Below are positions 9,279 through 64,000 of a stretch of 64,000 nt of DNA, in pieces (the stretch's first letter is position 1; every line of letters begins with the position of its first letter). The DNA is from a virus. The position numbers and the translations under genes were made by a program. The stretch covers positions 32,001-96,000 of IMG/VR virus record IMGVR_UViG_3300036790_000419. One strand, written 5' to 3'. Under the pieces are notes generated by a model. That model saw only the letters and a list, made by a program, of their open reading frames with translations, was not told the origin of the DNA and searched no databases.

Positions 9279-9863
9279 TTGCCCCTGACCCACCCGCACC
9301 GCCGCAGGCTGCCGAAGCACGCCCGGCACATCGCCCGGCAGATGCTGCGGCCCCGTGCCGCCTCGCGCGCCAGCGTCCTGATGTCGCACGTGCAGCAGCT
9401 CGACAGCGCCGTCAACCTCCGGGACTACCCGGACCGGCTGCCCCCCGACAGCGACCGGCATTCTCCCGGTGTCCGCGTCATCGCCGGCCCCGAGACCCGC
9501 TCCCTGCTGCGGCAGCTGCTGGCCTCCCGGGACCTGCGCACCCAGCAGCAGCTCGTGCGCGAGATCCGCCACCAGGTTCAGAAGCGGGTCCTGGCCGCGC
9601 TGCGCCGCGCCCGCGCCATGGAGCGCGCCCGCGAGCGCCTCGGCAAGGTCGCCCGGGGTGCCCGCCACCACGGGGGCCGGCTGCTCGGCTGGCTTCGCTC
9701 CGCTGCCGGACGCGCCCGCGGTGCCCGGGAGACCCGTACCGTCGGCAACCGCAAGCCCGTGACCCGTGCGCGCACGGGGGGCCAGGCCCGCACCCGCGAG
9801 CCCGTGGCCCGCACCCGCAAGCCCGCCGAGCGGGCTACCCGGGCCCGGACCGCGCGGCAGTGA
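9279..9863 (+). CDS. Highly basic hypothetical protein
   Basis: Open frame with codon bias; Arg-rich C-terminal ARTR repeats. Confidence 0.5.
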   Translation: MPLTHPHRRRLPKHARHIARQMLRPRAASRASVLMSHVQQLDSAVNLRDYPDRLPPDSDRHSPGVRVIAGPETRSLLRQLLASRDLRTQQQLVREIRHQVQKRVLAALRRARAMERARERLGKVARGARHHGGRLLGWLRSAAGRARGARETRTVGNRKPVTRARTGGQARTREPVARTRKPAERATRARTARQ

Positions 9864-10196
9864 TATTGACGCTCTCCGGTCAGGGGCCGTAGCCTCTGAC
9901 CGGAGAGCCCGAGAGGCCCAGTCCGCACCCGGCGCACCCGGGCGGGGACAGGTGCCCCGGGCCTGCCTCCGCTTCGGCAGGAGGCTCTATGAGGCCAGTT
10001 GCAGTCCCTTCGGCAGGGCAGCGACTGGCTTCACGCCTTTTCCGCAGCGCGCCGGCCTGGGATAACCGGGCCGTAATTGACAGGCACCCGGTTCCGCGGC
10101 CGGCTGGTGAGGCTGGCGGGGAGGGAACCGGGTGCCTTTCATGTCGACGCGAGCGCCACCGCACCTGGCGCGCTGTAGATCGCATGCGAGTCCAGT

Positions 10197-10937
10197 TTGC
10201 CTTACGAGCTGCTATATTCCAACCTCGGGGCCCCCTGGCCCTCGCTCGCGGAGCGCACGGTGACCGTGGGCGGGGTCCGCGTGCCCTTCGCCGAGGCGCT
10301 GCGCGCCGCTGAGATCCTGCGAGCCAGCCGGACGTCCGCCATCGCGCCGGTGCTGCGCTCGGCGGGCTCGCCGCTGGCCGGGTGCGATTACCTCGCCGCC
10401 GCCGCGCCCTACCTCGCCGCGGCCCGCGCCGTCCCCAAGACCGGCCGCGCCGGCGCGGCCGGCCGGCACGTCGCCAAGGACGCGTTCCTCCAGGCCGTCG
10501 CCCTGGCGCTGGCCGTCGCCCGCGAGCAGGACCTGGCTGACGCGCTGGAGGCGTTCACCTCCGACGAGCGGTACGCCGTGGCCATCGCCCGCGCCGCTGT
10601 CGACGCCCGTGAGCGCGCCTACGCCGCCGGGGTGCGCTCGGCCGTCCGCTCGGCCGTCGCCCGCGCTGTGGCCGCCTGCGGGGCCGTGCCGGGGCAGTTC
10701 TCGTGCTCGGCCGCCACCGCGTGCGGGACGGGCTGCTGCCGGTTCGCCGCGCCCGCGTACCGCGCGGCCGCCGCCCCGGCCGCCCCCGGCCGGTTCACCC
10801 GGCCGGCCAACCACACGGACGCCGGGCGGGGCTTCACCGAGGCCGGGGCCGCCACCGAGATCGCCGCCCGGGGCGGGCCCGCCCGCGGGGTGCAGGTCTG
10901 GGACGCCGATGCCCTGGCCGGCGGCGAGGCGGCGTGA
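10197..10937 (+). CDS. Ala-rich hypothetical protein
   Basis: Codon bias; start uncertain (in-frame TAG at 10176). Confidence 0.45.
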   Translation: MPYELLYSNLGAPWPSLAERTVTVGGVRVPFAEALRAAEILRASRTSAIAPVLRSAGSPLAGCDYLAAAAPYLAAARAVPKTGRAGAAGRHVAKDAFLQAVALALAVAREQDLADALEAFTSDERYAVAIARAAVDARERAYAAGVRSAVRSAVARAVAACGAVPGQFSCSAATACGTGCCRFAAPAYRAAAAPAAPGRFTRPANHTDAGRGFTEAGAATEIAARGGPARGVQVWDADALAGGEAA

Positions 10938-15634: not shown

Positions 15635-16018
15635 CTACCGCACGTCCACGGTCGCCCCGGCGACCTGGAGTGCCTCTACGGCCTTTTCCGCGGTCGCGCG
15701 GTCTGCGTTCTCCAGTACGGTGACCGGAGCCCGCTCCACCAGGTCCTTGGCCTCCTTGAGGCCCAGCTTGGTGAAGACCCGGACCTCCTTGATGACCTGG
15801 ATCTTCTTGGGGCCCGCGTCCTCGATGACGACATCGAACTCCGTCTGCTGGTCTTCCTCCTCCGGTGGCGCGTCAGCGACGGCGGGCGGCGTGCCGTTGA
15901 CCGACACGGCGGCGGTCACCCCGAATGTCGTCTCGAAGTCCTTCACGAACTCCGCCAGTTCCAGCACGGTCATTTCCCTGAACGCACCCATCAGGTCGGC
16001 GCTGCTCAGCTTCGCCAT
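15635..16018 (-). CDS. rplL: 50S ribosomal protein bL12 (L7/L12)
   Basis: [49 protein letters not shown]; AAGGAGG SD. Confidence 0.95.
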
Positions 16019-42706: not shown

Positions 42707-43000
42707 GTGCCGCTGCCAGGTGAAGGCCAGGTGGCCGAGTTCGACCGCGAGGCGGCCCGCAACGTGGTCCGGTGCGTCGTTCTCGCGGCGGACAGCGAGA
42801 TCCGGCGGGCGCCGGTCCCGTTCAGCAGCGTCCGCAACCCGGACGGCTCGCGGCAGGCTGAGACGCAGAGCGAGCGCGAAACCCGGCTGGTCCGCACGGC
42901 GGTCATGCACCTGCTGGAGCAGGGCCTGGTGGTGCTCCCGCCGGACATCGCGGAGATGCTGGACGACTGGATTCCCCTTGAGCGCGCTGGGACGGACTAG
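42707..43000 (+). CDS. Hypothetical protein
   Basis: Codon bias. Confidence 0.5.
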   Translation: MPLPGEGQVAEFDREAARNVVRCVVLAADSEIRRAPVPFSSVRNPDGSRQAETQSERETRLVRTAVMHLLEQGLVVLPPDIAEMLDDWIPLERAGTD

Positions 43001-45963
43001 TGACCGGCCGCAGCCCTGACTCAATCGCCCGGTGGCTGGACGGGAATCTGTTCCGGTTCGACGGCCCGTCCCAGATGCTGGGCACCGAGCCGAACGCCGC
43101 CCGCCGCCCGTGGGACGCGGCGAAGACCCGCTGGCTGCTCGCCGCGTCCTGGGACTACAGCCAGGCGGCCGGCAACATGGCGATCCCCGCCGTCTACGAC
43201 GCCATCCACAAGGCGGGGACGTACAGCCTGGCCGACCGCTGGTACCTGCCTGCCACCCCGCGCGACATGGACCTGCTGGAGCGCGGCCAGGTGCCGGCGT
43301 TCGGCATCGAGAGCCGGCGCCAGGCGCTCGACTTTGACGTGGTGGCCACCAGCATCTCCTACACCGTGCTGTTCATGAACTTCTGCAAGACCCTCTCCAT
43401 GAGCGGTATCCCGCTGCGCTGGGAGGACCGCGCGGGCGACCCGGGGGCTTACCCGATGGTCATGGCCGGCGGCCAGGCCTACTGCGCGCCCGAGTTCATG
43501 GCCCCGGTGGCAGACTGCGTATGGCTGGGTGAGGCCGAGGACGAGCCCGGTAACCCCGGCATGGCCGCGGTCTGCGAGGCCATCGCCCAGATGAAGGCGG
43601 ACGGCCTGTGGCGCGAGGAGCGGGCGCTGTGCTACCGGATGCTGGCCCGCGAGTTCAACTTCCTGTACTTCCCGCGCTTCACCGCCGTGGACTACCGCTA
43701 CGAGGACCGCGGGCTGCCTGAGCTGACCAAGATGGTGTCCGGCTACCGCTCGCTGCTGCCGGGCGTCGGCCCGCGCTTCAAGGCCAGGCGGGTGGTCAGC
43801 CTGAATAACGCGGACCTGATGACGTCCGCGCCGGTGCTGTTCGCCGACCCCGGCATGGGCTCGGGCGACGTCGAGGTAGCGCGCGGCTGCCCGGCCTGGT
43901 GCTCGTTTTGCCGTCTCTCGTGGGCCACCAAGCCCTACCGGCAGGAGGACACGGCTCGCTCGCTGGCTCGCGCGAAGACGTGGCGCGACAACATGGGCAG
44001 TACTGACATTTCCCTGGTCGCCCCTGACCCGCCTATGCACACCCAGATGAAGAAACTGGTCGCCGGGCTGCTGGAGAACGTCACCGGCAAGGTGGACGCG
44101 TCCAGCATGCGGATCGATGACTACCTCAGCGACCCGGACCTCTCCCTGCTGCTGCAGGTCTCGGGCACCACCGCGCTCACCCTCGGCCTGGAGGCCGGCG
44201 CGCAGCGGATACGCGACCTGGCCGGCAAGGGCACCAGCGACGACGACGTGGCGAAGGCGGTCACGGCGGCGATCCGGGCCGGCATCAGGAAGATCAAGAT
44301 CTACTTCATCACCAACTGGCCGGGCGAGGAGCAGGCCGACGTGATGAAGGTGGTGGCCCTGGGCAAGCGCCTGGCTGACATCCGTGACAGCTTTGGCGAG
44401 GCCGCGGCCGGGGTGCAGATCATCTTCTCCTGGACGCCGCTGCTGATCGAGGCGCAGACCCCGCTGCAGTGGTTTGCCGTCACCCCGCCGGACTACATGC
44501 TGCAGCAGGCGCTCGACGAACTCCGCGATCACCGGATCTGGGTCAAGATCGGCAGCAAGGCGTCGCCGCCGAAGCTGGCGTTCTTCCAGGCCTGCCAGCG
44601 AGCGAGCCGCGACGCGGGCGAGGCGATCGTAGACGTTATCGAGAATTACGGGACGGCTTCATGGGGCGGCTTCCCGAAGGACATGCGGGAAAAGCTCGAC
44701 GAGGCGATGAGAGTTCACGGTTTCCGCAACGGGCTCGACGACATATTCGGCGAGCGGTTCTACGAGGACCTGCTCGGCTGGGAGATGATCGACACCGGCG
44801 TGAAGCGCTCCCTCATGTGGCGGGCCTACCGGGACATGGTGGAGCTGCTCGAAGGCACGGACGCCGGGACTTACGACAGTGATATCCCCGAGGGATATCA
44901 CGGCAACGAGTGGGTGCCGCGCTGCGACCAGCAGTGCTCGGGCAGTGCGTGCGGGGTGTGCGACCGCGGCGACCTGGAGCTGCGCCGCGAGTACGTTCAG
45001 GCCGTCGACCGGGACCTGGCTGCCGACCCGGTGCGCCCGCTCGACCAGTCCACCGTCGCGCAGCGCGTCCGGCTGCGGGTGGAGCGCCCGGAGGTGTTCC
45101 GCTTCGTCACCGGCACGTTCCTGGAGTACGCGATCCGCCGGGCCGCCTACCGGGCGCACCGCGACGGGTTCCCCGCGCTCGCCGCCGAGTCGGTGCGCCT
45201 GGTGTCGGCGGGAACCGGCTACCGCGAGCGCAGCGCCGGCGTCGACTATGCCGAGTTCGGCCTGACCGCGCCCGCCGACGGTGACGCGGTCGGCGAGTTC
45301 CTGGCCCGCATGGCAGTGCACGTGCACCCGCACTTGCACTGGAGCGGGAACTACGCGGTGCTCCCGGCGGCGGCGAAGCTGCCCGCGCGCCCGGTCGGCC
45401 TGTGGGAGCTGGAGGTGGCCGACGACCCCGCGGTCCTCGCCCGGCGGCTGCGCTGGTGGGACGAGGCGGAGGCGGTGCCGGTGCTGATCCGCGCGGACAG
45501 CTTCTACGCCGGCACGACCGCCGGGCCCGGCGACGCCAAGGAGCACGTCACTGATTTCTGGGTGACCCGCGACGGGCAGCGGACCGTGCTGCGCATGCTG
45601 CTGAACGGCCGGCTCGGCCCGTACCAGGCGTACGCCGCGCTGTCCGGCAAGGCCAGCTGGCTTGAGGCCGCGCGTTACACCGCCCGCCGACTGGAGTTCT
45701 TCAGCGGCGGCGCTCAGCCGTGCGAAGGGTGCGGGCTGCCCGTGCCGGCCAGCCTGCTCGACGTTCCCTGGAGCGAGCGGTTCTGCCCGCGCTGCGGCGA
45801 CGCAGCCGAAGGGAAGGTTACCGCGGCGCTCTCGGGCGCCGGCGTATTACAGGTACCTGCCTTACGCACACCCTGTGGAGGAACCTGTGGATACTCCCGG
45901 ATACCGGAAGCCCGCTCACCAGTACGGCCAGCCTTACGGCACCTCGCCGGGGGCCGGCGATAG
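43000..45963 (+). CDS. Large radical SAM protein with fused C-terminal domain
   Basis: EVARGCPAWCSFC (CxxxCxxC), AFGIESRR..DFDV, VWLGEAE, GLEAGAQRIR, KIYFI; Cys cluster CDQQCSGSACGVC. Confidence 0.8.
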   Translation: MTGRSPDSIARWLDGNLFRFDGPSQMLGTEPNAARRPWDAAKTRWLLAASWDYSQAAGNMAIPAVYDAIHKAGTYSLADRWYLPATPRDMDLLERGQVPAFGIESRRQALDFDVVATSISYTVLFMNFCKTLSMSGIPLRWEDRAGDPGAYPMVMAGGQAYCAPEFMAPVADCVWLGEAEDEPGNPGMAAVCEAIAQMKADGLWREERALCYRMLAREFNFLYFPRFTAVDYRYEDRGLPELTKMVSGYRSLLPGVGPRFKARRVVSLNNADLMTSAPVLFADPGMGSGDVEVARGCPAWCSFCRLSWATKPYRQEDTARSLARAKTWRDNMGSTDISLVAPDPPMHTQMKKLVAGLLENVTGKVDASSMRIDDYLSDPDLSLLLQVSGTTALTLGLEAGAQRIRDLAGKGTSDDDVAKAVTAAIRAGIRKIKIYFITNWPGEEQADVMKVVALGKRLADIRDSFGEAAAGVQIIFSWTPLLIEAQTPLQWFAVTPPDYMLQQALDELRDHRIWVKIGSKASPPKLAFFQACQRASRDAGEAIVDVIENYGTASWGGFPKDMREKLDEAMRVHGFRNGLDDIFGERFYEDLLGWEMIDTGVKRSLMWRAYRDMVELLEGTDAGTYDSDIPEGYHGNEWVPRCDQQCSGSACGVCDRGDLELRREYVQAVDRDLAADPVRPLDQSTVAQRVRLRVERPEVFRFVTGTFLEYAIRRAAYRAHRDGFPALAAESVRLVSAGTGYRERSAGVDYAEFGLTAPADGDAVGEFLARMAVHVHPHLHWSGNYAVLPAAAKLPARPVGLWELEVADDPAVLARRLRWWDEAEAVPVLIRADSFYAGTTAGPGDAKEHVTDFWVTRDGQRTVLRMLLNGRLGPYQAYAALSGKASWLEAARYTARRLEFFSGGAQPCEGCGLPVPASLLDVPWSERFCPRCGDAAEGKVTAALSGAGVLQVPALRTPCGGTCGYSRIPEARSPVRPALRHLAGGRR

Positions 45964-53255: not shown

Positions 53256-53438
53256 GTGTTCGGCTGGCTGTCCTCGCTGTTCTTCGCCATCGCGTTCATC
53301 CTGTACGCGGCCAAGGCCGGCACCTCGCTGCCCTGGACCCCGGAGGGCTTCACGATCCTCGGCCTGCTGTGCCTGGCCCTGCACGTGGCGTTCTGGTGGT
53401 ACCCGGTCGGCCGCCGCCCCGGGCCGCCGGTCGCGTGA
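53256..53438 (+). CDS. Small two-TM membrane protein
   Basis: Two hydrophobic helices; GTGA overlap with terminase. Confidence 0.55.
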   Translation: MFGWLSSLFFAIAFILYAAKAGTSLPWTPEGFTILGLLCLALHVAFWWYPVGRRPGPPVA

Positions 53439-55402
53439 CCGCCGCCGGCGCGGCTGCCGCGGCCCTGCTCGGGTCGTCCGGCGGCGCGGGCACGTCCGCT
53501 ACCGGGCCCGGCATCTTCGAGGAGGAGCCGGTCCCGCTTGACGTCTTCGTCCGGGACCGGGCCTACCTGGCCAACCCGCCGCTGAGCGAGGTCCAGTACG
53601 AGGCGGTCCGGCACGCTGAGCGGGTCTACTACCTGCCGACCTACGAGCTGCTGGCGGCCAGCGCCGACAAGGAGGTGAGGAACTACTGGTCGCAGCCGAC
53701 GCGCATGGTCAACTTCCTGGAGCTGGAGTGGGGGAAGGGCGGGGGCAAGGACCACACCTGCCGGATGATCGCCATGCGGGTCTGCTACCTGCTGCTGTGC
53801 CTGAAGTCCCCGCAGGATTACTACCAGATGCCCGAGCAGGATTCGATTCACGTCCTGAATGTCGCATCATCTTCGAAGCAGGCCCAGCGCGCGTTCTTCG
53901 CCCCCATGCGCCGCGCGGTGCAGCGGCCGGGCTGCTGGTTCCAGCGCAAGGCCGGCATCGACATCATCGACGCCGCCGCCCGCCAGCAGCGCGGCGCCCG
54001 CGGGGAGCGCACCGTCACGCTGCTGGACACCATCCGGTTCGAGCACAACATCGAGGCTGTCTCCGGCCACTCCGACGCCGACAGCCAGGAGGGGCTCAAC
54101 CTCATCCTCGGCATCGCCGACGAGATCGACGCGTTCCGCTCGGCCGCGGAGCTGGCTCGCAACGCCTCGGCCAAGCAGCGCGAGTCGTCCTCCTCGGCCG
54201 AGGCGATCCTCGACATGATCCGGACCAGTGCCACCACCCGGTTCCCGGAGACCTTCAAGAACGTGCACATCTCCTACCCGCGCTACCTGGGCAGCACCAT
54301 CCAGCAACTGGTCGCCAAGGGCAAGGCTGACAACGAGGCGCGCGGTGAGCGGAGCCGCTACTACGTGTCCGGCCCGCTGGCTACCTGGGAGGCCAATCCC
54401 CGCATCAGCGGGAAAGAGGCGTTCGCGGAGGACTACGAGAAGGACCCGGCGCTGGCCGAGGCGAAGTACGAGTGCAAGCCGCGCCGCGCGATTAACCCGT
54501 ACTTCGCCAACGAGGAGGCCATCCGCGACTGCCTGGTGGAGTACGCCCAGCCGCCGGTGAGCGTGGCCTACGTGCGCGAGGGCGCGACCTGGAGGCCGCT
54601 CTACACCTTCAGCCCCGGGTTCTTCCCGGTCAAGGGTGCCTTGTACGCCATGCACGCTGACCTGGCGGCCACCGGCGACCGGGCCGGCGTGACGATGGCG
54701 CACGTCAAGCGCTGGCAGGACCACGCCCTTGTCGGCTACGACGAGGAAGGCCTGGAGATCAAGGTCCAGGAGCGCCGCCCGGTGGTGAAAGCCGACTTCA
54801 CCATCAGCTACGAGGCGGACGCCGGCGCGAGGCCGCCGATGGAGATCCAGATTCGCTGGGCGAGGATGTTGTGCCTTGAGCTGCGCCGGATGGGATTTCC
54901 GGTAGTTTTCTTCTCATTCGATCAGTGGCAGTCAAAAGACTCCATGCAGATCCTGGAATCGCACGGAATAGAGACTGACCGGTTCTCCACCGACGTGTCC
55001 GAGGAGGGCTGGCGGACGCTGCGGGACGTCATGTACGAGGGCCGCCTGGAGATGCCCGCGCGCGAGCTGACCGTCATCGAGCTGCTCGGGCTGTCGCGGC
55101 TGCCGAACGGCAAGATCGACCACCTGGGTGACAGCTCCAAGGACGAGGCCGACTCCCTGGCCGGCGCGGTTTCCGGCGCGCTGAGGACCGGCGGCCAGGA
55201 GGACGCGAGCGGCAAGCGCGCCTACCCCGGCCAGGCCTCGTTCTACGGCCCGGCCGCTGAGATCCCCTCCCCGGCTGGAATGCCCGCGGCGATGTCAGTG
55301 CTCGGCCCGGATAACTTCATGCCGGCGGACCGCCCCGGCATGGAGTACGGCAGCAGCTACCTGGACGACTGGGGCTCGGCCAGCGGGGACTACCAGCAGT
55401 AA
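53435..55402 (+). CDS. Terminase large subunit
   Basis: WGKGGGKD Walker A, IADEID Walker B, ISYPR, HADLA, FDQWQS, IDH..SKDEADSLAG. Confidence 0.85.
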   Translation: MTAAGAAAAALLGSSGGAGTSATGPGIFEEEPVPLDVFVRDRAYLANPPLSEVQYEAVRHAERVYYLPTYELLAASADKEVRNYWSQPTRMVNFLELEWGKGGGKDHTCRMIAMRVCYLLLCLKSPQDYYQMPEQDSIHVLNVASSSKQAQRAFFAPMRRAVQRPGCWFQRKAGIDIIDAAARQQRGARGERTVTLLDTIRFEHNIEAVSGHSDADSQEGLNLILGIADEIDAFRSAAELARNASAKQRESSSSAEAILDMIRTSATTRFPETFKNVHISYPRYLGSTIQQLVAKGKADNEARGERSRYYVSGPLATWEANPRISGKEAFAEDYEKDPALAEAKYECKPRRAINPYFANEEAIRDCLVEYAQPPVSVAYVREGATWRPLYTFSPGFFPVKGALYAMHADLAATGDRAGVTMAHVKRWQDHALVGYDEEGLEIKVQERRPVVKADFTISYEADAGARPPMEIQIRWARMLCLELRRMGFPVVFFSFDQWQSKDSMQILESHGIETDRFSTDVSEEGWRTLRDVMYEGRLEMPARELTVIELLGLSRLPNGKIDHLGDSSKDEADSLAGAVSGALRTGGQEDASGKRAYPGQASFYGPAAEIPSPAGMPAAMSVLGPDNFMPADRPGMEYGSSYLDDWGSASGDYQQ

Positions 55403-56357: not shown

Positions 56358-56430
56358 AGGGACGTAGTTCAGCGGCCAGAACGGCAGCTTCCAACACTGC
56401 GCGCCGGGGGTTCGAGTCCTCCCGTCCCTG
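56358..56430 (+). tRNA. tRNA-Trp(CCA)
   Basis: Cloverleaf; A1-U72, G73; C31:A39 mismatch. Confidence 0.75.
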
Positions 56431-56728
56431 CGACCGTCAGCAACGGCGAGAGCCCGCGCAGGCGCATGTCAATGCAGCTTGAGAACTCCACAGCGTGAGC
56501 ATCAGCGGCGGGCGCCATCCCGTCGCACATGACTGGCAGCCGGGTGCGCTCACACCGTGCCCGGCTGCCGATCAACGCCCGGTTCACGGCATGCCGTGAC
56601 GATGGGCAAGCACCGTGCCGTCCGCCGGCCTCCGGGCTCGCGTTCCACCGTAGGGGTGTGCGGCCTGGCTCCGGCCAGGTGGCGGCGGTACTTGGTGTCA
56701 AGAGTTTTTGCACGATATGCAAAGCAAT

Positions 56729-56801
56729 GGGGCCTTAGCTCAGCTGGTAGAGCATCTGCTCGGCAGACAGAAGGTCGGGGGTTCGATCCCCCCAGGCTCC
56801 A
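56729..56801 (+). tRNA. tRNA-Ala(GGC)
   Basis: Cloverleaf; G3:U70; C33. Confidence 0.8.
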
Positions 56802-56803
56802 CA

Positions 56804-56874
56804 GCGGCGGGTTGCCGGTTCGAATCCGGTCCGGTCCACGCATGGGCTGGTAGCTCAAATGGACAGAGTGTCGC
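56804..56874 (+). ncRNA. Circularly permuted tRNA-like RNA (YrlA-type module)
   Basis: T arm, then loop-closed acceptor stem, then D arm; ends pair GCGGC/GTCGC. Confidence 0.65.
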
Positions 56875-56878
56875 ATCT

Positions 56879-56951
56879 GGGGACGTAGCTCAGCTGGTAG
56901 AGCAGCCGCCTCGCAAGCGGCGTGTCGCGGGTTCGATTCCCGCCTTCTCCA
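56879..56951 (+). tRNA. tRNA-Ala(CGC)
   Basis: Cloverleaf; G3:U70. Confidence 0.9.
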
Positions 56952-57107
56952 CTTAGGGCACTACTGCCGCGCGTCGGCCGGCGCAAGGCGAGAGAGGGCA
57001 GCTGACCTCTCTGGTGCCTTACCGTTCACCCGTGCGGTAAAACCGGGGACCAGCGGAGCCGAATGTCCGGGGCACCGGGCTGAGGGTGGGGTAAGCCTCC
57101 GCAACAT

Positions 57108-57185
57108 CGGGGTGTGGCGCAGCTTGGCTAGCGCGCTACGTTCGGGACGTAGAGGTCGTGAGTTCAAATCTCACCACTCCGACCA
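57108..57185 (+). tRNA. tRNA-Pro(CGG)
   Basis: Cloverleaf with CCA. Confidence 0.93.
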
Positions 57186-57245
57186 GGATCTCAATGGCTC
57201 AAGTGAGGCGGCAGTAAAGGGCCACGCCCTGCCGGAGATCCGTAA

Positions 57246-57317
57246 CGGGATGTAGTTCAGTGGAAGAGCGCCTGGTTTGGGACCAGGATGTCGCGGGTTC
57301 GAGCCCTGCCATCCCGA
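57246..57317 (+). tRNA. tRNA-Pro(TGG)
   Basis: Cloverleaf. Confidence 0.9.
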
Positions 57318-57466
57318 CTGCTGGTCAGAGCCGCGTGGCGTGCGGGCCCTTAGCGGGGCACTCAGGGTTCGAGTCCCTGCCTGGTCAGCCGCTCCGGTAA
57401 TAGGGACGCCAGCAGCGGACGCGCGCTGGCGGTCGGTGAAACCCCGTTGCGAATCCGGAGCACCCT

Positions 57467-57539
57467 GGGGCCTTAGCTCAGATGGCAGAGCGCCCGGTTG
57501 AAACCCGGAAGGTCGGAGTCTCGGAATCTCCAGGTCCCG
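57467..57539 (+). tRNA. tRNA-Phe(GAA), aberrant T loop
   Basis: Acceptor, D and anticodon arms present; T arm degenerate. Confidence 0.6.
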
Positions 57540-57553
57540 CGCAGTAACACAAT

Positions 57554-57626
57554 GGGGATGTGGCCGAACGGTTACAGGCACTTGCCTTCCAAGCAAGCTA
57601 CGCGGGTTCGACCCCCGTCATCCCCT
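57554..57626 (+). tRNA. tRNA-Gly(TCC)
   Basis: Cloverleaf. Confidence 0.9.
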
Positions 57627-57754
57627 CTGGTACGGGCCGGACTCATACTCCGGTTGCGTGCAAGTAACCGGTCCGCGGCTGTCGGGCTGCGGACCGGGAG
57701 CGCCTGGGCTGCCCGGAGGGGCCGACACCCTCTCCGGGGGCACCAGTACTCAAT

Positions 57755-57826
57755 GCGCCGCGAGCATGTACGGCTATGCAGCGGACTCTTAATCCACGGA
57801 ACGGGGTTCAAGTCCCTGGCGGCGCA
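57755..57826 (+). tRNA. tRNA-Lys(CTT)
   Basis: Cloverleaf; loop CTCTTAA. Confidence 0.8.
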
Positions 57827-57870
57827 CTTCACCTGGCTTCGCCGATTTTCGGCAGAGTTCGGTGTTATTC

Positions 57871-57945
57871 GGGCGAGTAGAGCAACCTGGCAGACCCTCC
57901 GCTCCCAAAAAGCGGGATGTGCGGGTTCGAATCCCGCCTCGCCCA
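57871..57945 (+). tRNA. tRNA-Leu(CAA), short variable arm
   Basis: Cloverleaf; loop CCCAAAA (C33). Confidence 0.65.
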
Positions 57946-58049
57946 CGCCGGCTGGCAAGGCCGTCCTGCGAATCCTTGCCCGGCCTCTCCTGTGGGGAGA
58001 GCAAAGGCCGTTACAGGAGGGGGAGAAAAGGCCCCTCCCGTCAATTCAG

Positions 58050-58122
58050 TGGGGTATGGCGCAATTGGCAGCGCAGGTGCGTCTGGTGCACAAGGTTCTA
58101 GGTTCGAGTCCTGGTACCCCAG
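58050..58122 (+). tRNA. tRNA-Gln(CTG)
   Basis: Cloverleaf; U1-A72. Confidence 0.88.
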
Positions 58123-58125
58123 CGA

Positions 58126-58198
58126 GCTGGAGAATGCGGGTTCGAATCCTGCCCGGCGAGAGAGATCTCGCCGGTGGCTTAATCGGCAAAGCGCCAGC
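58126..58198 (+). ncRNA. Circularly permuted tRNA-like RNA (YrlA-type module)
   Basis: GCTGG-AGAAT-T arm-9-bp acceptor closed by GAGA tetraloop-D arm-G-CCAGC. Confidence 0.75.
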
Positions 58199-58234
58199 AA
58201 CCCCGGGCACGGACGGTATCCCGGCCCGGGGCCC

Positions 58235-58308
58235 GCCCTTGTAGCTCATCTGGCAAGAGCGCCCGCCCCGTAAGCGGAAGGTCCCGCGTTCGACTCGCGG
58301 CAAGGGCT
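58235..58308 (+). tRNA. tRNA-Thr(CGT)
   Basis: Cloverleaf; C33. Confidence 0.85.
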
Positions 58309-58419
58309 CGTAGTGTCCCGCCGAAGGCGTCACAGGCCCTCATGCCGGCTCCGTTCCAGGTGCCGTGCGGGGTTCGAGTTCTGCTCGTTTCTCCCTCGAT
58401 CGCGCGTCGCGATCATTAT

Positions 58420-58493
58420 GCCCGGATAGCTCAGACGGCGAGAGCGTATCCCCGGTACGGATGAGGCCCCGAGTTCGATTCTCGGTCCGGGCT
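58420..58493 (+). tRNA. tRNA-Thr(GGT)
   Basis: Cloverleaf; C33. Confidence 0.85.
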
Positions 58494-58504
58494 CGCAAGT
58501 TCAC

Positions 58505-58578
58505 GCGGATGTAGCTCAGTTGGTTAGAGCGTGACGTTGCCAACGTCAAGGTCGCCGGTTCGAGTCCGGTTATCCGCT
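58505..58578 (+). tRNA. tRNA-Gly(GCC)
   Basis: Cloverleaf. Confidence 0.93.
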
Positions 58579-58579
58579 C

Positions 58580-58662
58580 GGGTGAGTGGCGTAATGGCAG
58601 CCGCGCACGGTTCAGGCCCGTGTGTCCGCAAGGACGTGAGGGTTCAAGTCCCTCCTCGCCTA
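58580..58662 (+). tRNA. tRNA-Leu(CAG)
   Basis: Cloverleaf with long variable arm. Confidence 0.9.
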
Positions 58663-58772
58663 CTTCGAGGTTGTCCACCGTGGCCGCGGGCCGCTGCGCC
58701 TGCCGTGCGAGAGCACGGGTTCCAGGACGGCGGTTAGTTTCCCTGCTAGCGGGAGCGAACGGTGACCTACAC

Positions 58773-58856
58773 GGACGCGTGGCTCAGTGGCTACAGCAGC
58801 GCCCTGCTAAGGCGTACAGGGGTAACCCTGCGGAGGTTCGAGTCCTCCCGCGTCCG
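58773..58856 (+). tRNA. tRNA-Ser(GCT)
   Basis: Cloverleaf with long variable arm. Confidence 0.9.
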
Positions 58857-58941
58857 CTTCTGCGCCGGATACCAGCCGAGTCCGTCAGGTGGTGACGCAG
58901 GCGCAGTGCCCGTGGGGGACGGCAACCCGCGACGGGCGCCC

Positions 58942-59029
58942 GGAAGCGTAAGTCGAGCCGGCCTACCGACAGCGGTCCCGAAAACCGTGAGGGGTAACTC
59001 CCGTGTGGGTTCGAGTCCCACCGCTTCCT
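58942..59029 (+). tRNA. tRNA-Ser(CGA)
   Basis: Long variable arm; C33. Confidence 0.8.
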
Positions 59030-59196
59030 CCGCACATGATTGAGGCGGCACCCACGGGCCGCTTGCGGGTACCGCCTCAATGTGTAATCAGCCAGGCTGG
59101 TGATCCAGTCCAGAAGGAAGGAACCACGTGCCTTTACGAGCAGCCTAGTTTACTGCTCGCGTTCGCAAGCATACGCACAGTCACAGTGATTGTCGA

Positions 59197-59273
59197 GGGC
59201 GGGTAGCTCAGCAGGTTGGAGCACTTCCCTGATAAGGAAGAGGCCGCTGGTTCGATCCCAGCCTCGCCCACCA
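59197..59273 (+). tRNA. tRNA-Ile(GAT)
   Basis: Cloverleaf with CCA. Confidence 0.92.
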
Positions 59274-59274
59274 C

Positions 59275-59349
59275 GGCGGTATAGCTCAGCCGGTGAGAGC
59301 GCCCCGCTCATAACGGGAGAGGCCGGGGGTTCGAGCCCCTCTACCGCTA
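59275..59349 (+). tRNA. tRNA-Met(CAT) elongator (or Ile2)
   Basis: Cloverleaf; loop CTCATAA. Confidence 0.85.
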
Positions 59350-59350
59350 C

Positions 59351-59424
59351 GGGCCGCTAGCTCAACTGCGCAGAGCGGCTGACCTTTAATCAGCGGGTTC
59401 GGGGTTCGAGTCCCCGGCGGCCCA
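59351..59424 (+). tRNA. tRNA-Lys(TTT)
   Basis: Cloverleaf; loop CCTTTAA (C33). Confidence 0.85.
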
Positions 59425-59432
59425 CTAGCCTG

Positions 59433-59588
59433 GTGCGCGTGAGGAACCTCGCGCTCCGGGCAGCTGAGCGCCTGCACGTCATCTTCGACGCCGTCCCGGT
59501 TTACGAGGACGAGCGGTGGTACAGGTACGGAGACTGGGGCTGCCGGGCGTCCAACTGGGTGCGCCGGCAGCGGAACAAGCGCCGGTAG
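59433..59588 (+). CDS. Small ORF inside the tRNA array
   Basis: 51-aa frame with GC3-rich codons; stop overlaps the tRNA-Arg 5' end. Confidence 0.35.
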   Translation: MRVRNLALRAAERLHVIFDAVPVYEDERWYRYGDWGCRASNWVRRQRNKRR

Positions 59589-59655
59589 CTCAGTCGGACA
59601 GAGCAGGCGGCTTCTAACCGCCAGGCCGCGGGTTCGAGCCCCGCCTGGCGCACCA
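59579..59655 (+). tRNA. tRNA-Arg(TCT)
   Basis: Cloverleaf with CCA. Confidence 0.93.
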
Positions 59656-59658
59656 CAC

Positions 59659-59731
59659 GGTCCTGTCGTCTAGCGGCCCAGGATGCCTGATTCTCGATCA
59701 GGTCGCGCGAGTTCGAATCTCGCCAGGACCA
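59659..59731 (+). tRNA. tRNA-Glu(CTC)
   Basis: Cloverleaf. Confidence 0.9.
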
Positions 59732-59825
59732 CGCAGAGCCTGCTACGCGGGAGACGGCCATTGCCAAAGCAGGTACTCTGAGGTCCGCGCCGGGAGCTGG
59801 CTGAAATCCGCTCGGCAGGACGCAA

Positions 59826-59899
59826 GCCCCTCTCGACTAGCGGTCCAGGTCGCCTGCCTTTCAAGCAGGATGACACCGGTTCGAATCCGGTGGGGGGAA
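59826..59899 (+). tRNA. tRNA-Glu(TTC)
   Basis: Cloverleaf; 1:72 mismatch. Confidence 0.8.
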
Positions 59900-59930
59900 C
59901 GAGGGCCTCCGGGGTAACCTGGGGGCGCGA

Positions 59931-60008
59931 CGCGGAGTAGGGGAGTTCGGTTGTCCCCGCGGCGCTTTCATAACGCCGAGATCGCGGGTCCGAATCCCGC
60001 CTCCGCCA
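59931..60008 (+). tRNA. Initiator-like tRNA-Met(CAT) with 9-nt anticodon loop
   Basis: CGCGGAG start with C1 mismatch; loop CTTTCATAA; T loop TCCGAAT. Confidence 0.65.
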
Positions 60009-60099
60009 CGAGGCCCGGCACTGGCGGCCGGCGAAAGCCCCGGGGAATACGTGGCTGGCCCTGCTGGATAAGGGCTAAACAGCCGGGGGCCTCAGTCGA

Positions 60100-60172
60100 T
60101 CCGGCGTAGCTCAATCGGCAGAGCAGCGTCCCGTTAAGGCGAGGGTTCCCAGTTCGAGTCTGGGCGCCGGAG
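60100..60172 (+). tRNA. tRNA-Asn(GTT)
   Basis: Cloverleaf; C33. Confidence 0.85.
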
Positions 60173-60277
60173 CGCGTCAGTCTGGGATACGAGGGGCAGC
60201 AGCCCTGCCGCGGCCCGCGCGGCGGTCGCCGAAGCGGGACGAGTGCCGGGGCTCCCCAGTCAGCCGCCGGCACACAT

Positions 60278-60353
60278 GGTCTTGTAGGGGAGCCTGGCCG
60301 TCCCCGCCGCCCCGTCAAGGCGAAGATCGCGGGTTCGAATCCCGCCAGGACCG
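60278..60353 (+). tRNA. tRNA-Asp(GTC)
   Basis: Cloverleaf; C33. Confidence 0.85.
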
Positions 60354-60377
60354 CTTTCTCACCCGGGGCCGGGGCGT

Positions 60378-60512
60378 TTAGACACCGGAGCGCTTGCGCC
60401 GCTCGCCCAGCTCGGTCCGCCCGAGCCGGTACAGGGCGCGGTAGCCGCCGAGCCTCAGCCCGATCCAGATGCCGGAGCCGAAGGCGATGACCAGGAGGAT
60501 GAAAATGCCCAC
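60378..60512 (-). CDS. 44-aa single-pass membrane protein antisense to the tRNA array
   Basis: MGIFILLVIAFGSGIWIGLRLGGYRALYRLGRTELGERRKRSGV*; operator variant at 60534-60549. Confidence 0.55.
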   Translation of the reverse strand: MGIFILLVIAFGSGIWIGLRLGGYRALYRLGRTELGERRKRSGV

Positions 60513-60554
60513 GTGATTAAACGGTACCTGGTTCTTTACCAGTGTCTAGGCACT

Positions 60555-60629
60555 GCCCCTGTAGCTCAACGGGAGAGCGCCGTCTCGACAAGGCGGAGGG
60601 AGGTGGTCCGACACCACCTAGGGGCACCA
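60555..60629 (+). tRNA. tRNA-Val(GAC)
   Basis: Cloverleaf with CCA; C33, T loop TCCGACA. Confidence 0.75.
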
Positions 60630-60630
60630 T

Positions 60631-60704
60631 GCACTAGTAGCTCAGCGGACAAGAGCAGCGGCCTACGGAGCCGCGTGGCGGGGGTTCGAGTCCCTCCTAG
60701 TGCA
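60631..60704 (+). tRNA. tRNA-Arg(ACG)
   Basis: Cloverleaf. Confidence 0.9.
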
Positions 60705-60715
60705 CGCGAGTACAA

Positions 60716-60787
60716 GGGCGCATAGCTCAGCGGAAGAGCGCTCGGTTCACACCCGAGAGGCCGGCGGTTCGATCCCTTCTGCGCCCA
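60716..60787 (+). tRNA. tRNA-Val(CAC)
   Basis: Cloverleaf. Confidence 0.9.
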
Positions 60788-60788
60788 C

Positions 60789-60863
60789 GGTCGGTATAGC
60801 TCAACGGCAGAGCGCTGGACTGTGGCTCCAGACATACGAGTTCGATTCTCGTTACCAACCCCA
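60789..60863 (+). tRNA. tRNA-His(GTG)
   Basis: G-1, C73, CCA. Confidence 0.88.
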
Positions 60864-60864
60864 T

Positions 60865-60948
60865 GGCGGAGTGACCCGAGATGGCAAGGGGGCCGGCTGT
60901 AAACCGGCTGCGCGAGCATGGCAGGTTCGAGCCCTGCGTCCGTCACCA
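60865..60948 (+). tRNA. tRNA-Tyr(GTA)
   Basis: Long variable arm, CCA. Confidence 0.9.
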
Positions 60949-60949
60949 A

Positions 60950-61023
60950 GGTCTCATAGCTCAGTGGAACAGAGCACCCGCCTCCGGAGCGGGGGGCCGG
61001 CGGTTCGAGTCCGTCTGAGACCA
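60950..61023 (+). tRNA. tRNA-Arg(CCG)
   Basis: Cloverleaf. Confidence 0.9.
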
Positions 61024-61111
61024 CGACTGAGTTCACCGCCGTGACCTGGCAGCGGGTAGCGGTGGGCCAGTAAAGCGGGGCGTGCTGCCGGCTACGCCTG
61101 CCCCGTCCAAT

Positions 61112-61187
61112 GGCGGTATGGCCGAGTGGTACAGGCGCACGCCTGCAAAACGTGCTTACCCGGGTCCGATTCCCGGTGCCGCCTCCA
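61112..61187 (+). tRNA. tRNA-Cys(GCA)
   Basis: U73, CCA; T loop TCCGATT; C31:A39. Confidence 0.82.
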
Positions 61188-61188
61188 G

Positions 61189-61261
61189 GACCCTGTAGCT
61201 CAGCGGACAGAGCTGCTTCCCCCTAAGGAGCGAGTCGCTGGTTCGAGTCCAGCCAGGGCCG
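61189..61261 (+). tRNA. tRNA-Arg(CCT)
   Basis: Cloverleaf; C33. Confidence 0.82.
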
Positions 61262-61394
61262 CCTTCGGTGCTCACGCTGTGGCAGCCTGGAGACGGGAGA
61301 CCGGGTACGGGCTCGGCTTCGCGGGTCTGAGATCGTTTCCGGTCTCCCGTCACACCAGGGTACATGCACATCACTGCGTTACGCTGGCCCTATT

Positions 61395-62866: not shown

Positions 62867-64000
62867 ATGACTACACCGGGCGGCGGGCAGGGCTCCTACA
62901 GCTCCAGCGTGCAGCCGCCTGGTGGCCTCGGGGTTAGCAGTCAGGGCTACGGCCAGGAGGGCTACGTCCTGCAGGACGAGCAGACGCTTGTCCAGCCGCC
63001 CGACGAAGCTCTCAATTTTGCCACCGGCGTCCCGTACTTCCTCCCCTTCGCCACCCCGTACCGGGACTCGTGGGAGGTCTTCCGCGACGACCCGGTCAGC
63101 ATCCGCCAGCTGGTCACCATGCGCCGCCGCGACGGCCAGGCCAGGGCGCTGTACCGGCTGCTGACCAAGCCGCTGCTGAGCGCGATGAAGAACGCCGACG
63201 TGGTGCCCGCCGACGGGGTGACCGGCGGGGTGGAGGAGGCCCGGTTCTGCAAGGACCTGCTGTTCGCGCCGCGGGCGCAGGGCGGCATGTCTCAGTCGTT
63301 TGACAAATTCGTCAAGCAGATGCTGCTCGCGCTGTTCAACGGGTTCAGCGCCTGGGAGATGGTCTACTGGGTCCCCAAGACCGGGCCGAACAAGGGCAAG
63401 TGGACGCTGCGCAAGATGGACTGGCGCCCTTCGGAGACCCTCACCTTCCTGCTTGACGGCCAGGGCGAGTTCAACGGCTTCCGGCAGCGCACGTTCTTCC
63501 AGGGCCGGACGATCGACGTCAAGATCGCGAAAGAGACCGCGCTGTACTACGCGCACGAGGAAGCCGAGCGGCCGTTCTACGGCGTGTCCATGTTCGAGAG
63601 CGCCTTCTACCACTACGACAAGAAGGAGAAGCTCTACTACATCGCTCACCTGGCGGCGCAGCGGGCCGCGGTGGGCCTGCGGGTGGGCACGATGGTGCCG
63701 AATGCCCCGGCTGAGGACAAGAACAACTTCATCCGGGCGCTGGCCCAGCTCGGGCTCGCGCAGTACATCGCGCTGCCCACCGCCGACTGGACGGTGCAGA
63801 CCCTCAACGAGTCAGCCAGCCGGTTCGACTTCCTGGGGCTGATCAACCACCACAACAGCCAGATGTCCAAGAGCGTTCTCGCCCAGTGGTTCGACAACGA
63901 GCAGGGAGGCGGCCAGGGGGACAGCACGCTGGTCGACTTCGGCAAGCAGGACGACGTCACCTACTTCCTGATGCTGGAGGGCATCCTGGAGGAGATGGCC
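62867..64000 (+). CDS. Portal protein (DUF935/Mu gp29-like), truncated by window end
   Basis: MRRRDGQARALYRLL, ALFNGFSAWEMVY, PFYGVSMFESAF, INHHNSQMSKSVLAQ; CCGATTA box upstream. Confidence 0.8.
   Translation, partial: MTTPGGGQGSYSSSVQPPGGLGVSSQGYGQEGYVLQDEQTLVQPPDEALNFATGVPYFLPFATPYRDSWEVFRDDPVSIRQLVTMRRRDGQARALYRLLTKPLLSAMKNADVVPADGVTGGVEEARFCKDLLFAPRAQGGMSQSFDKFVKQMLLALFNGFSAWEMVYWVPKTGPNKGKWTLRKMDWRPSETLTFLLDGQGEFNGFRQRTFFQGRTIDVKIAKETALYYAHEEAERPFYGVSMFESAFYHYDKKEKLYYIAHLAAQRAAVGLRVGTMVPNAPAEDKNNFIRALAQLGLAQYIALPTADWTVQTLNESASRFDFLGLINHHNSQMSKSVLAQWFDNEQGGGQGDSTLVDFGKQDDVTYFLMLEGILEEMA

Follow-up and report, generated by a model that had tools for sequence, protein, structure and literature searches.

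The uridine at position 33 of the tRNA anticodon loop (U33) makes the anticodon U-turn, and for that reason few nucleotides in biology are as conserved. In the DNA analysed here, a 64,000-nucleotide window of a viral genome (IMG/VR record IMGVR_UViG_3300036790_000419; the window spans positions 32001-96000; the record is a single contig of 148,913 bp, 70% GC, referred to as genome G000), ten of the 33 tRNA genes encode C at this position instead (C33), and the same departure recurs throughout the related phages. The finding is real, lineage-wide and statistically strong, and it constitutes a pyrimidine-only, isoacceptor-dependent relaxation of the U-turn uridine. For the purpose of C33 in this lineage we offer proposals only. 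The one we favour, with a probability of roughly 0.4, is that the C33 tRNAs are working variants kept by selection, likely because the change alters how host enzymes that read U33 see the phage tRNAs.

All tRNA genes of the 148,913-bp genome are confined to one array (ARAGORN, n=33). The array and the members that depart from consensus are given below in window coordinates.

56358..61263, + strand: 33-gene tRNA array covering all 20 amino acids, in the terminase-portal interval; found by ARAGORN and Rfam RF00005, with syntenic arrays in the related contigs L001-L007, L011, L055 and L120
56358..56431, + strand: tRNA-Trp(CCA), with a C31·A39 mismatch and U33 kept
56729..56802, + strand: tRNA-Ala(GGC), C33 at 56761 in the loop TCggcAG, with C31·A39 and with G3·U70 present; same loop in L001, L006 and L011
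57871..57946, + strand: tRNA-Leu(CAA), C33 at 57905; Rfam score 44 bits
58235..58309, + strand: tRNA-Thr(CGT), C33 at 58268; Rfam score 54.7 bits
58420..58494, + strand: tRNA-Thr(GGT), C33 at 58453; Rfam score 58.2 bits
58942..59031, + strand: tRNA-Ser(CGA), with a long variable arm and C33 at 58978; C33 in 5/5 clade orthologs
59351..59425, + strand: tRNA-Lys(TTT), C33 at 59384; Rfam score 59.1 bits
59931..60009, + strand: initiator-like tRNA-Met, with 1:72 unpaired, C55 at 59990 and a 9-nucleotide anticodon loop, ctttcataa
60100..60173, + strand: tRNA-Asn(GTT), C33 at 60132, seen in the Infernal alignment; C33 in 6/8 orthologs
60278..60354, + strand: tRNA-Asp(GTC), C33 at 60313, seen in the Infernal alignment
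60555..60629, + strand: tRNA-Val(GAC), C33 at 60586 and C55 at 60608, seen in the Infernal alignment; C33 in 6/9 orthologs
61112..61187, + strand: tRNA-Cys(GCA), C55 at 61166, with C31·A39 and U33 kept
61189..61263, + strand: tRNA-Arg(CCT), C33 at 61221

A sequence-only reading of the window had named ten C33 tRNAs, and the ARAGORN cloverleaves return exactly these ten (10/33), which span nine amino acids. Its two further observations are likewise confirmed: in the T loops of the initiator-like Met, Val GAC and Cys tRNAs (3/33), TCC replaces T54-U55-C56 and so places C at position 55 (C55), while Trp, Ala GGC and Cys carry C31·A39. The numbering is secured by an Infernal alignment to RF00005, which places the C in the U33 column with top posterior probability and aligns the consensus loop CUuauAA to CCGUUAA, UCGACAA and CCGUCAA; in related phages, the orthologous tRNAs share the anticodon and have T at this site. 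With permissive filters, 32 of the 33 genes reach the RF00005 gathering threshold of 29 bits, scoring 32-69 bits, and the C33 tRNAs score 44-59 bits. Ser CGA goes to the same-clan tRNA-Sec model, with 34.5 bits; in ARAGORN it is a class II tRNA. Two other genes are unusual. The T loop of Phe reads an odd CTC, and the initiator-like Met is read by ARAGORN as a UGA-reading selenocysteine tRNA, SeC(tca), because its anticodon loop is expanded to 9 nucleotides, while the L006 ortholog has a 7-nucleotide loop, cccataa. The expanded loop may leave this tRNA impaired, or may serve an unusual decoding.

C33 is a trait of the whole phage lineage. Here, the clade is defined as 12 related uncultured phage contigs whose large terminases are at least 73% identical. 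Seven IMG/VR contigs (L001-L007, of which L002 and L003 are duplicates of each other) have terminases 84-92% identical, and in each, 33-37 tRNAs form a syntenic array. L052, L053 and L055 (terminase 74%) and L120, which is genome G010 (73%), came from a profile search. The comparison with related phages, suggested by the sequence-only reading, found C33 in every relative of the clade: 71 of 291 tRNAs carry C33, and none of the 291 has A or G there. C33 makes up 18-36% of the tRNAs on each clade contig, with 6-10 such tRNAs per close relative, 5/14 in L055 and 8/36 in L120. C55 is found in 14/291.

Outside the clade, C33 is rare. Genome G009 (terminase 49% identical) has 0/31, with a GC content at third codon positions (GC3) of 0.94 and a tRNA GC of 0.65, like the clade. 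Microbacterium phage Magritte, the nearest cultured phage, with none close (terminase 46% identical), has 0/25 with a GC3 of 0.89, and L109 has 1/18 with a GC3 of 0.58. The single cases in Mycobacterium phage Phabba (1/25) and Streptomyces phage Paradiddles (1/42) are both Val GAC, and the one in Caulobacter phage phiCbK (1/28; GC3 about 0.90) is tRNA-Ile(GAT). The window's 10/33 stands against 3/144 in the non-clade phage arrays, with phiCbK left out (Fisher p = 3e-6); the clade differs from its outgroup relatives in C33 (Fisher p = 2e-7) and from all others in C55 (Fisher p = 0.001). GC pressure may be permissive for C33, yet it is not a sufficient cause, because the GC3-matched phages G009, Magritte and phiCbK (GC3 about 0.89-0.94) are almost without it, with 1/84 together. 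A sense-strand T-to-C mutation bias was considered as a cause and rejected: C/(C+T) at third positions is equal in the clade (0.90-0.97), G009 (0.95) and Magritte (0.90), and G·U pairs, the mirror A-to-G product, are not raised (6.7% vs 8.3%). General loosening of tRNA constraint also fails to explain C33, since stem mismatches per 17 pairs are 0.29-0.53 in clade sets vs 0.32-0.64 in outgroup arrays, and departures from U8 occur in 7-14% vs 12-17%.

Two of these comparators have oddities of their own. Magritte has A for T at T-loop position 54 in 5/25 tRNAs (e.g. atcgaag), and departures from "invariant" tRNA bases seem to differ from one phage lineage to the next. The 18-tRNA array of L109 (IMG/VR 3300025875_000003; terminase 49% identical, GC 0.54) includes a tRNA with a CTA anticodon, a possible amber suppressor.

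The C33 genes keep the architecture of functional tRNAs. Mismatches per 17 stem pairs average 0.50 in C33 tRNAs and 0.54 in U33 tRNAs. Orthologs are just 70-82% identical, yet 97% of stem cells are paired, and both sides have changed in compensation in 374/595 stem pairs; in families with frequent C33, this holds for 8-14 of 17 pairs. This covariation, together with the intact pairing, argues that the C33 genes are RNA genes under structural selection and not pseudogenes. The view that the changes are directional rather than random decay, taken by the sequence-only reading, holds on these grounds and on the complete lack of purines at position 33. Within the clade, the terminase tree requires at least 49 T/C changes at this position, in both directions, and their distribution over isoacceptors is uneven (permutation p = 2e-4). 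Ser CGA (5/5), Asn (6/8), Val GAC (6/9) and Thr GGT (5/7) are rich in C33, while 11 families never have it (Trp, Pro CGG, Phe, Lys CTT, Gly GCC, Ser GCT, Ile, Arg ACG, Tyr, Arg CCG and Leu GAG). Next to G37, C33 is also five-fold rarer than next to A37 (p = 2e-4), and its frequency has no relation to the evolutionary rate of the tRNA family (rho = -0.10). Selection on position 33 is indicated by the lack of purines, the depletion beside G37 and the uneven spread over isoacceptors.

Positions 33 and 55 are each the U-turn nucleotide, the second base of a 7-nucleotide loop, and the excess of C extends beyond both. Among stem mismatches, C·A and A·C together account for 42% in the clade vs 17% in outgroup arrays (p = 5e-4). 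The share of C is 24% at position 33 and 5% at position 55, and opposite A it is about 7%. In essence, at sites of clade tRNAs that require U, C specifically carries a lower cost than usual.

The only clue to the host is a 3.1-kb contig of this phage lineage, L011 (JBEKKH010000833.1), which was binned in a Streptosporangiaceae metagenome-assembled genome (MAG) from the SPRUCE peat site, the only bacterial assembly found to hold the lineage. Its terminase is 84% identical, and it also carries the array's first five tRNAs, among them Ala GGC with C33. Streptosporangiaceae may thus be the host, a weak assignment, since metagenomic binning of one short contig is its basis. The sequence-only reading had raised the possibility that host tRNAs share C33 at a similar frequency; the 43 tRNAs of this MAG itself have no C33 (0/43; Fisher p = 3e-5 against the clade), no C55 (0/43) and one C·A. 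In 7/10 C33 tRNAs, the loop is the same as that of the candidate host apart from position 33.

The reading we favour would run as follows. The phage tRNA genes would be genuine and working, with U33, and less often U55, encoded as C, and the encoded C would most likely stay C in the RNA. A C33 loop would still permit a usable anticodon fold at some decoding cost; yeast living on a U33C tRNA-Gln(CUG) is viable, with a poorer CAG decoding phenotype (PMC3664417). C33 would then be kept in particular isoacceptors through changed treatment by host enzymes that read U33, with a U33-reading nuclease postulated in the actinomycete host. The one bacterial example on record is the machinery for N6-threonylcarbamoyladenosine at position 37 (t6A37): with U33C, neither E. 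coli TsaBCDE nor yeast KEOPS forms t6A37 (PMC8887486). A passage of PMC6103680 describes t6A as a positive determinant of PrrC, an anticodon nuclease, so that the rejection of C33 by TsaBCDE, with its loss of t6A37, would remove a determinant on which PrrC depends. A search of the literature turned up no paper that describes C33 in phage tRNAs.

Several points weigh against this proposal. A literature search found no nuclease that requires U33, and the nucleases of the host were not searched for; gamma-toxin cuts U33C substrates as well as the wild type (PMC2275089). C33 is not enriched in the ANN-decoding tRNAs of the t6A type (24/89 vs 47/202 among the others), and a U33-reading enzyme does not account for the raised C55 and C·A mismatches. 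C33 is limited to about a quarter of clade tRNAs. The anticodon loops of 47% of the phage tRNAs are identical to those of the candidate host, and C33 shows no either-or pattern with other loop differences from it (p = 0.89); the comparison with this host itself depends on the binning of L011. Finally, the 49 or more flips at position 33 fit near-neutrality as well as they fit shifting selection. The systematic nuclease evasion put forward by the sequence-only reading is therefore retained as plausible evasion, and the word "systematic" is given up, given the quarter of tRNAs affected, the host-identical loops, the missing trade-off and the indifference of gamma-toxin.

Next after selection comes a close rival, that of tolerated drift, which we regard as possible. 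It supposes that slightly deleterious U-to-C changes (C33, C55, C·A) are occasionally fixed with no adaptive role, under a T-to-C mutation push in 70% GC phages where each accessory tRNA matters little. At position 33, C has a frequency of 24%, well under the ~90-97% found among third-position pyrimidines, so that C is still selected against; this, the reversals in both directions, the shared direction of change at three kinds of U-requiring site and the lack of an either-or pattern with other loop changes are all in its favour. Yet drift of this kind fits poorly with the near absence of C33 from GC3-matched arrays, with an overall sloppiness no greater in the clade than in outgroups, with G·U pairs that are not raised, and with a C33 frequency that does not track the rate at which families evolve. 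Nor does it readily account for the strong heterogeneity among isoacceptors, with Ser CGA fixed for C, or for the retention of Val C33 by about 90% of 161 mycobacteriophages whose GC is 65%. The same low frequency of C bears on the C-to-U editing that the sequence-only reading had offered beside nuclease evasion, in which an unrecognised phage enzyme would turn C33, C55 and C opposite A into U and leave the genomic C silent. Silent sites would be expected to hold C at ~90%, against the 24%, 5% and 7% observed, and a C that lies well below its neutral level is still selected against, unlike one at a fully edited site. Editing would explain why C replaces U at three classes of U-requiring site without a matching excess of G for A, it fits the shared place of positions 33 and 55 in the U-turn loop, and the clade has many conserved open reading frames (ORFs) of its own, with no known function, among which an enzyme could lie. 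However, the statement of the sequence-only reading that no deaminase is recognised in the window extends to a six-frame scan of G000, which found no CDA-type deaminase and no HxE...PCxxC motif in any frame, and to the three complete relatives G002-G004, in which PF00383 was not found. Pfam and NCBIfam scans of about 165 ORFs gave no deaminase, RNA ligase, kinase or tRNA-modifying family. Candidates that were looked at and set aside include a deaminase-motif match in L004, which is HNH-like, and three weak HxE/CxxC matches in G000, which are small Cys-rich proteins; the only conserved weak match, at genome positions 9843-10253, is Cys-rich and zinc-ribbon-like, and its motif is lost in the G010 ortholog. 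A host enzyme is unlikely, as the candidate host has no C33 substrates. Taken together, these results make editing improbable.

Ahead of editing by such an enzyme, and unlikely as well, stands a broader possibility: an unrecognised device that makes C serve as U at 33, 55 and opposite A, perhaps a non-CDA C-to-U editing or base-modifying enzyme among the conserved clade-specific ORFs, or else a broad U33-reading host defence that is escaped piecemeal. If true, non-CDA editing would give bacteria or phages their first tRNA C-to-U editing system. We consider it very improbable that physical chemistry suffices, with a mildly acidic cytoplasm (e.g. that of a peat-bog actinomycete) favouring protonated C+ at 33 and 55 and the C·A+ wobble, so that C mimics U better than in other hosts. 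From known RNA chemistry, all three raised features would need protonation to mimic U or U-A, and the only assembly holding the lineage is the MAG from the SPRUCE peat site, but the 43 tRNAs of that very host are without C33 or C55 and have one C·A. Least probable of all is that the C33 genes are unexpressed or uncharged pseudogenes. Most of them do lack an encoded CCA; on the other side stand their intact and covarying stems, the absence of purines at position 33, Rfam scores of 44-59 bits and the retention of identity elements, such as G3·U70 in Ala GGC. The probability left over after these readings is assigned to other causes.

The genome in which the array lies is that of a 149-kb GC-rich tailed phage that probably infects actinomycetes, and its genes are almost all on the + strand. 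Pfam and PHROG scans identify a terminase, portal, major capsid protein, DNA polymerase A, DnaB-like helicase, clamp, clamp loader and RecA. The two genes that flank the array are as follows.

53369..55402, + strand: large terminase (PHROG 17415), on the upstream flank of the tRNA array; query for finding relatives (tblastn)
62867..64000, + strand, continuing past the window end to genome position 96465: Mu-like portal protein (Pfam PF06074, PHROG 113), on the downstream flank of the array

A DNA search of the array against cultured phages gave nothing beyond two short tRNA matches, and a promoter and terminator scan of the array gave no signal above shuffled sequence. Within the array, the spacer after tRNA-Gln (window 58128-58196) has a weak match to YrlA, a Y RNA-like family, at 25.8 bits vs a gathering score of 69. 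Elsewhere in the window, positions 15638-16018 (- strand) encode a homolog of ribosomal protein L7/L12 (Pfam PF00542, E = 2.9e-24, plus a dimerisation domain), which is present in the relative G004 and absent from G010, G009 and Magritte. L7/L12 is ruled out as a clade factor behind C33, as the C33-rich G010 is without it. Window positions 43000-45963 encode a 987-residue B12-binding radical SAM protein that matches TIGR03960, an uncharacterised family (E = 1.4e-54, a match under the family's cut-off); the protein is 58-73% identical across clade genomes and absent from G009 and Magritte. Outside the window, the region 114001-148913 of G000 contains a flavohaemoglobin-like ORF (Globin + FAD_binding_6 + NAD_binding_1), odd for a phage, as well as DivIVA and DUF2637 domains.

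A phage lineage in which C33 occupies a quarter of a full tRNA set shows that bacterial translation can do with a relaxed U33 rule, and because this relaxation is specific to a lineage and to isoacceptors, it is more than a side effect of GC content. Should C33 hide phage tRNAs from host enzymes, it would be a new and general route in the tRNA arms race between phages and bacteria; if it is merely tolerated, C33 gauges the real contribution of U33 to fitness.

Among known systems, the closest likeness for a genomic C at a near-invariant structural U of many tRNAs is Methanopyrus kandleri, where, as Randau et al. are said to have described in 2009, the enzyme CDAT8 reportedly edits C8 to U8 in 30/34 tRNAs. 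There, a dedicated deaminase is encoded and the C is nearly fixed, whereas in this phage lineage no deaminase was found, and C is in the minority and flipping. The cytoplasmic initiator tRNA-Met of animals and plants naturally has C33 (PMC8887486), making it a natural, functional C33 tRNA and showing that the loop can work without U33. In contrast to the phage array, however, it is a single P-site initiator with a co-evolved t6A machinery, while the tRNAs described here are elongators for nine amino acids and belong to a bacterial system, whose t6A enzymes reject C33 where tested, in E. coli.

Phage tRNAs linked to host nucleases offer a second comparison. Nuclease-insensitive phage tRNAs were hypothesized by van den Berg et al. 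2023 (PMC10264068), in a paper that makes no mention of position 33, and the T5 tRNA-Lys/Thr/Asn defeat the AriB nuclease of PARIS (PMC11464382, PMC12409363). As in this array, these are phage copies of host tRNAs that differ in the anticodon stem-loop, but the known changes lie at 39-41 (AriB) or at loop positions 36-38 (VapCs) and not at U33, and here half the loops equal those of the candidate host. The nearest parallel at position 33 itself comes from the C1 mycobacteriophages, whose position-33 states we read from the sequences listed in the supplement of PMC10264068. C33 occurs in Val GAC of 144/161 and in Val CAC of 142/161, while the common tRNAs other than these two Val carry U33 (PMC10264068 supplementary file 1a). 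Like the clade, these are actinophages with large arrays, and their Val loops, TCgacAC and TCcacAC, belong to two isoacceptors that are often C33 in the clade as well. Unlike the window, where C33 reaches 10/33 over nine amino acids, they confine it to the two Val tRNAs, ~2/33. Carrying the same change already, the C1 mycobacteriophage Val tRNAs provide a tractable laboratory model.

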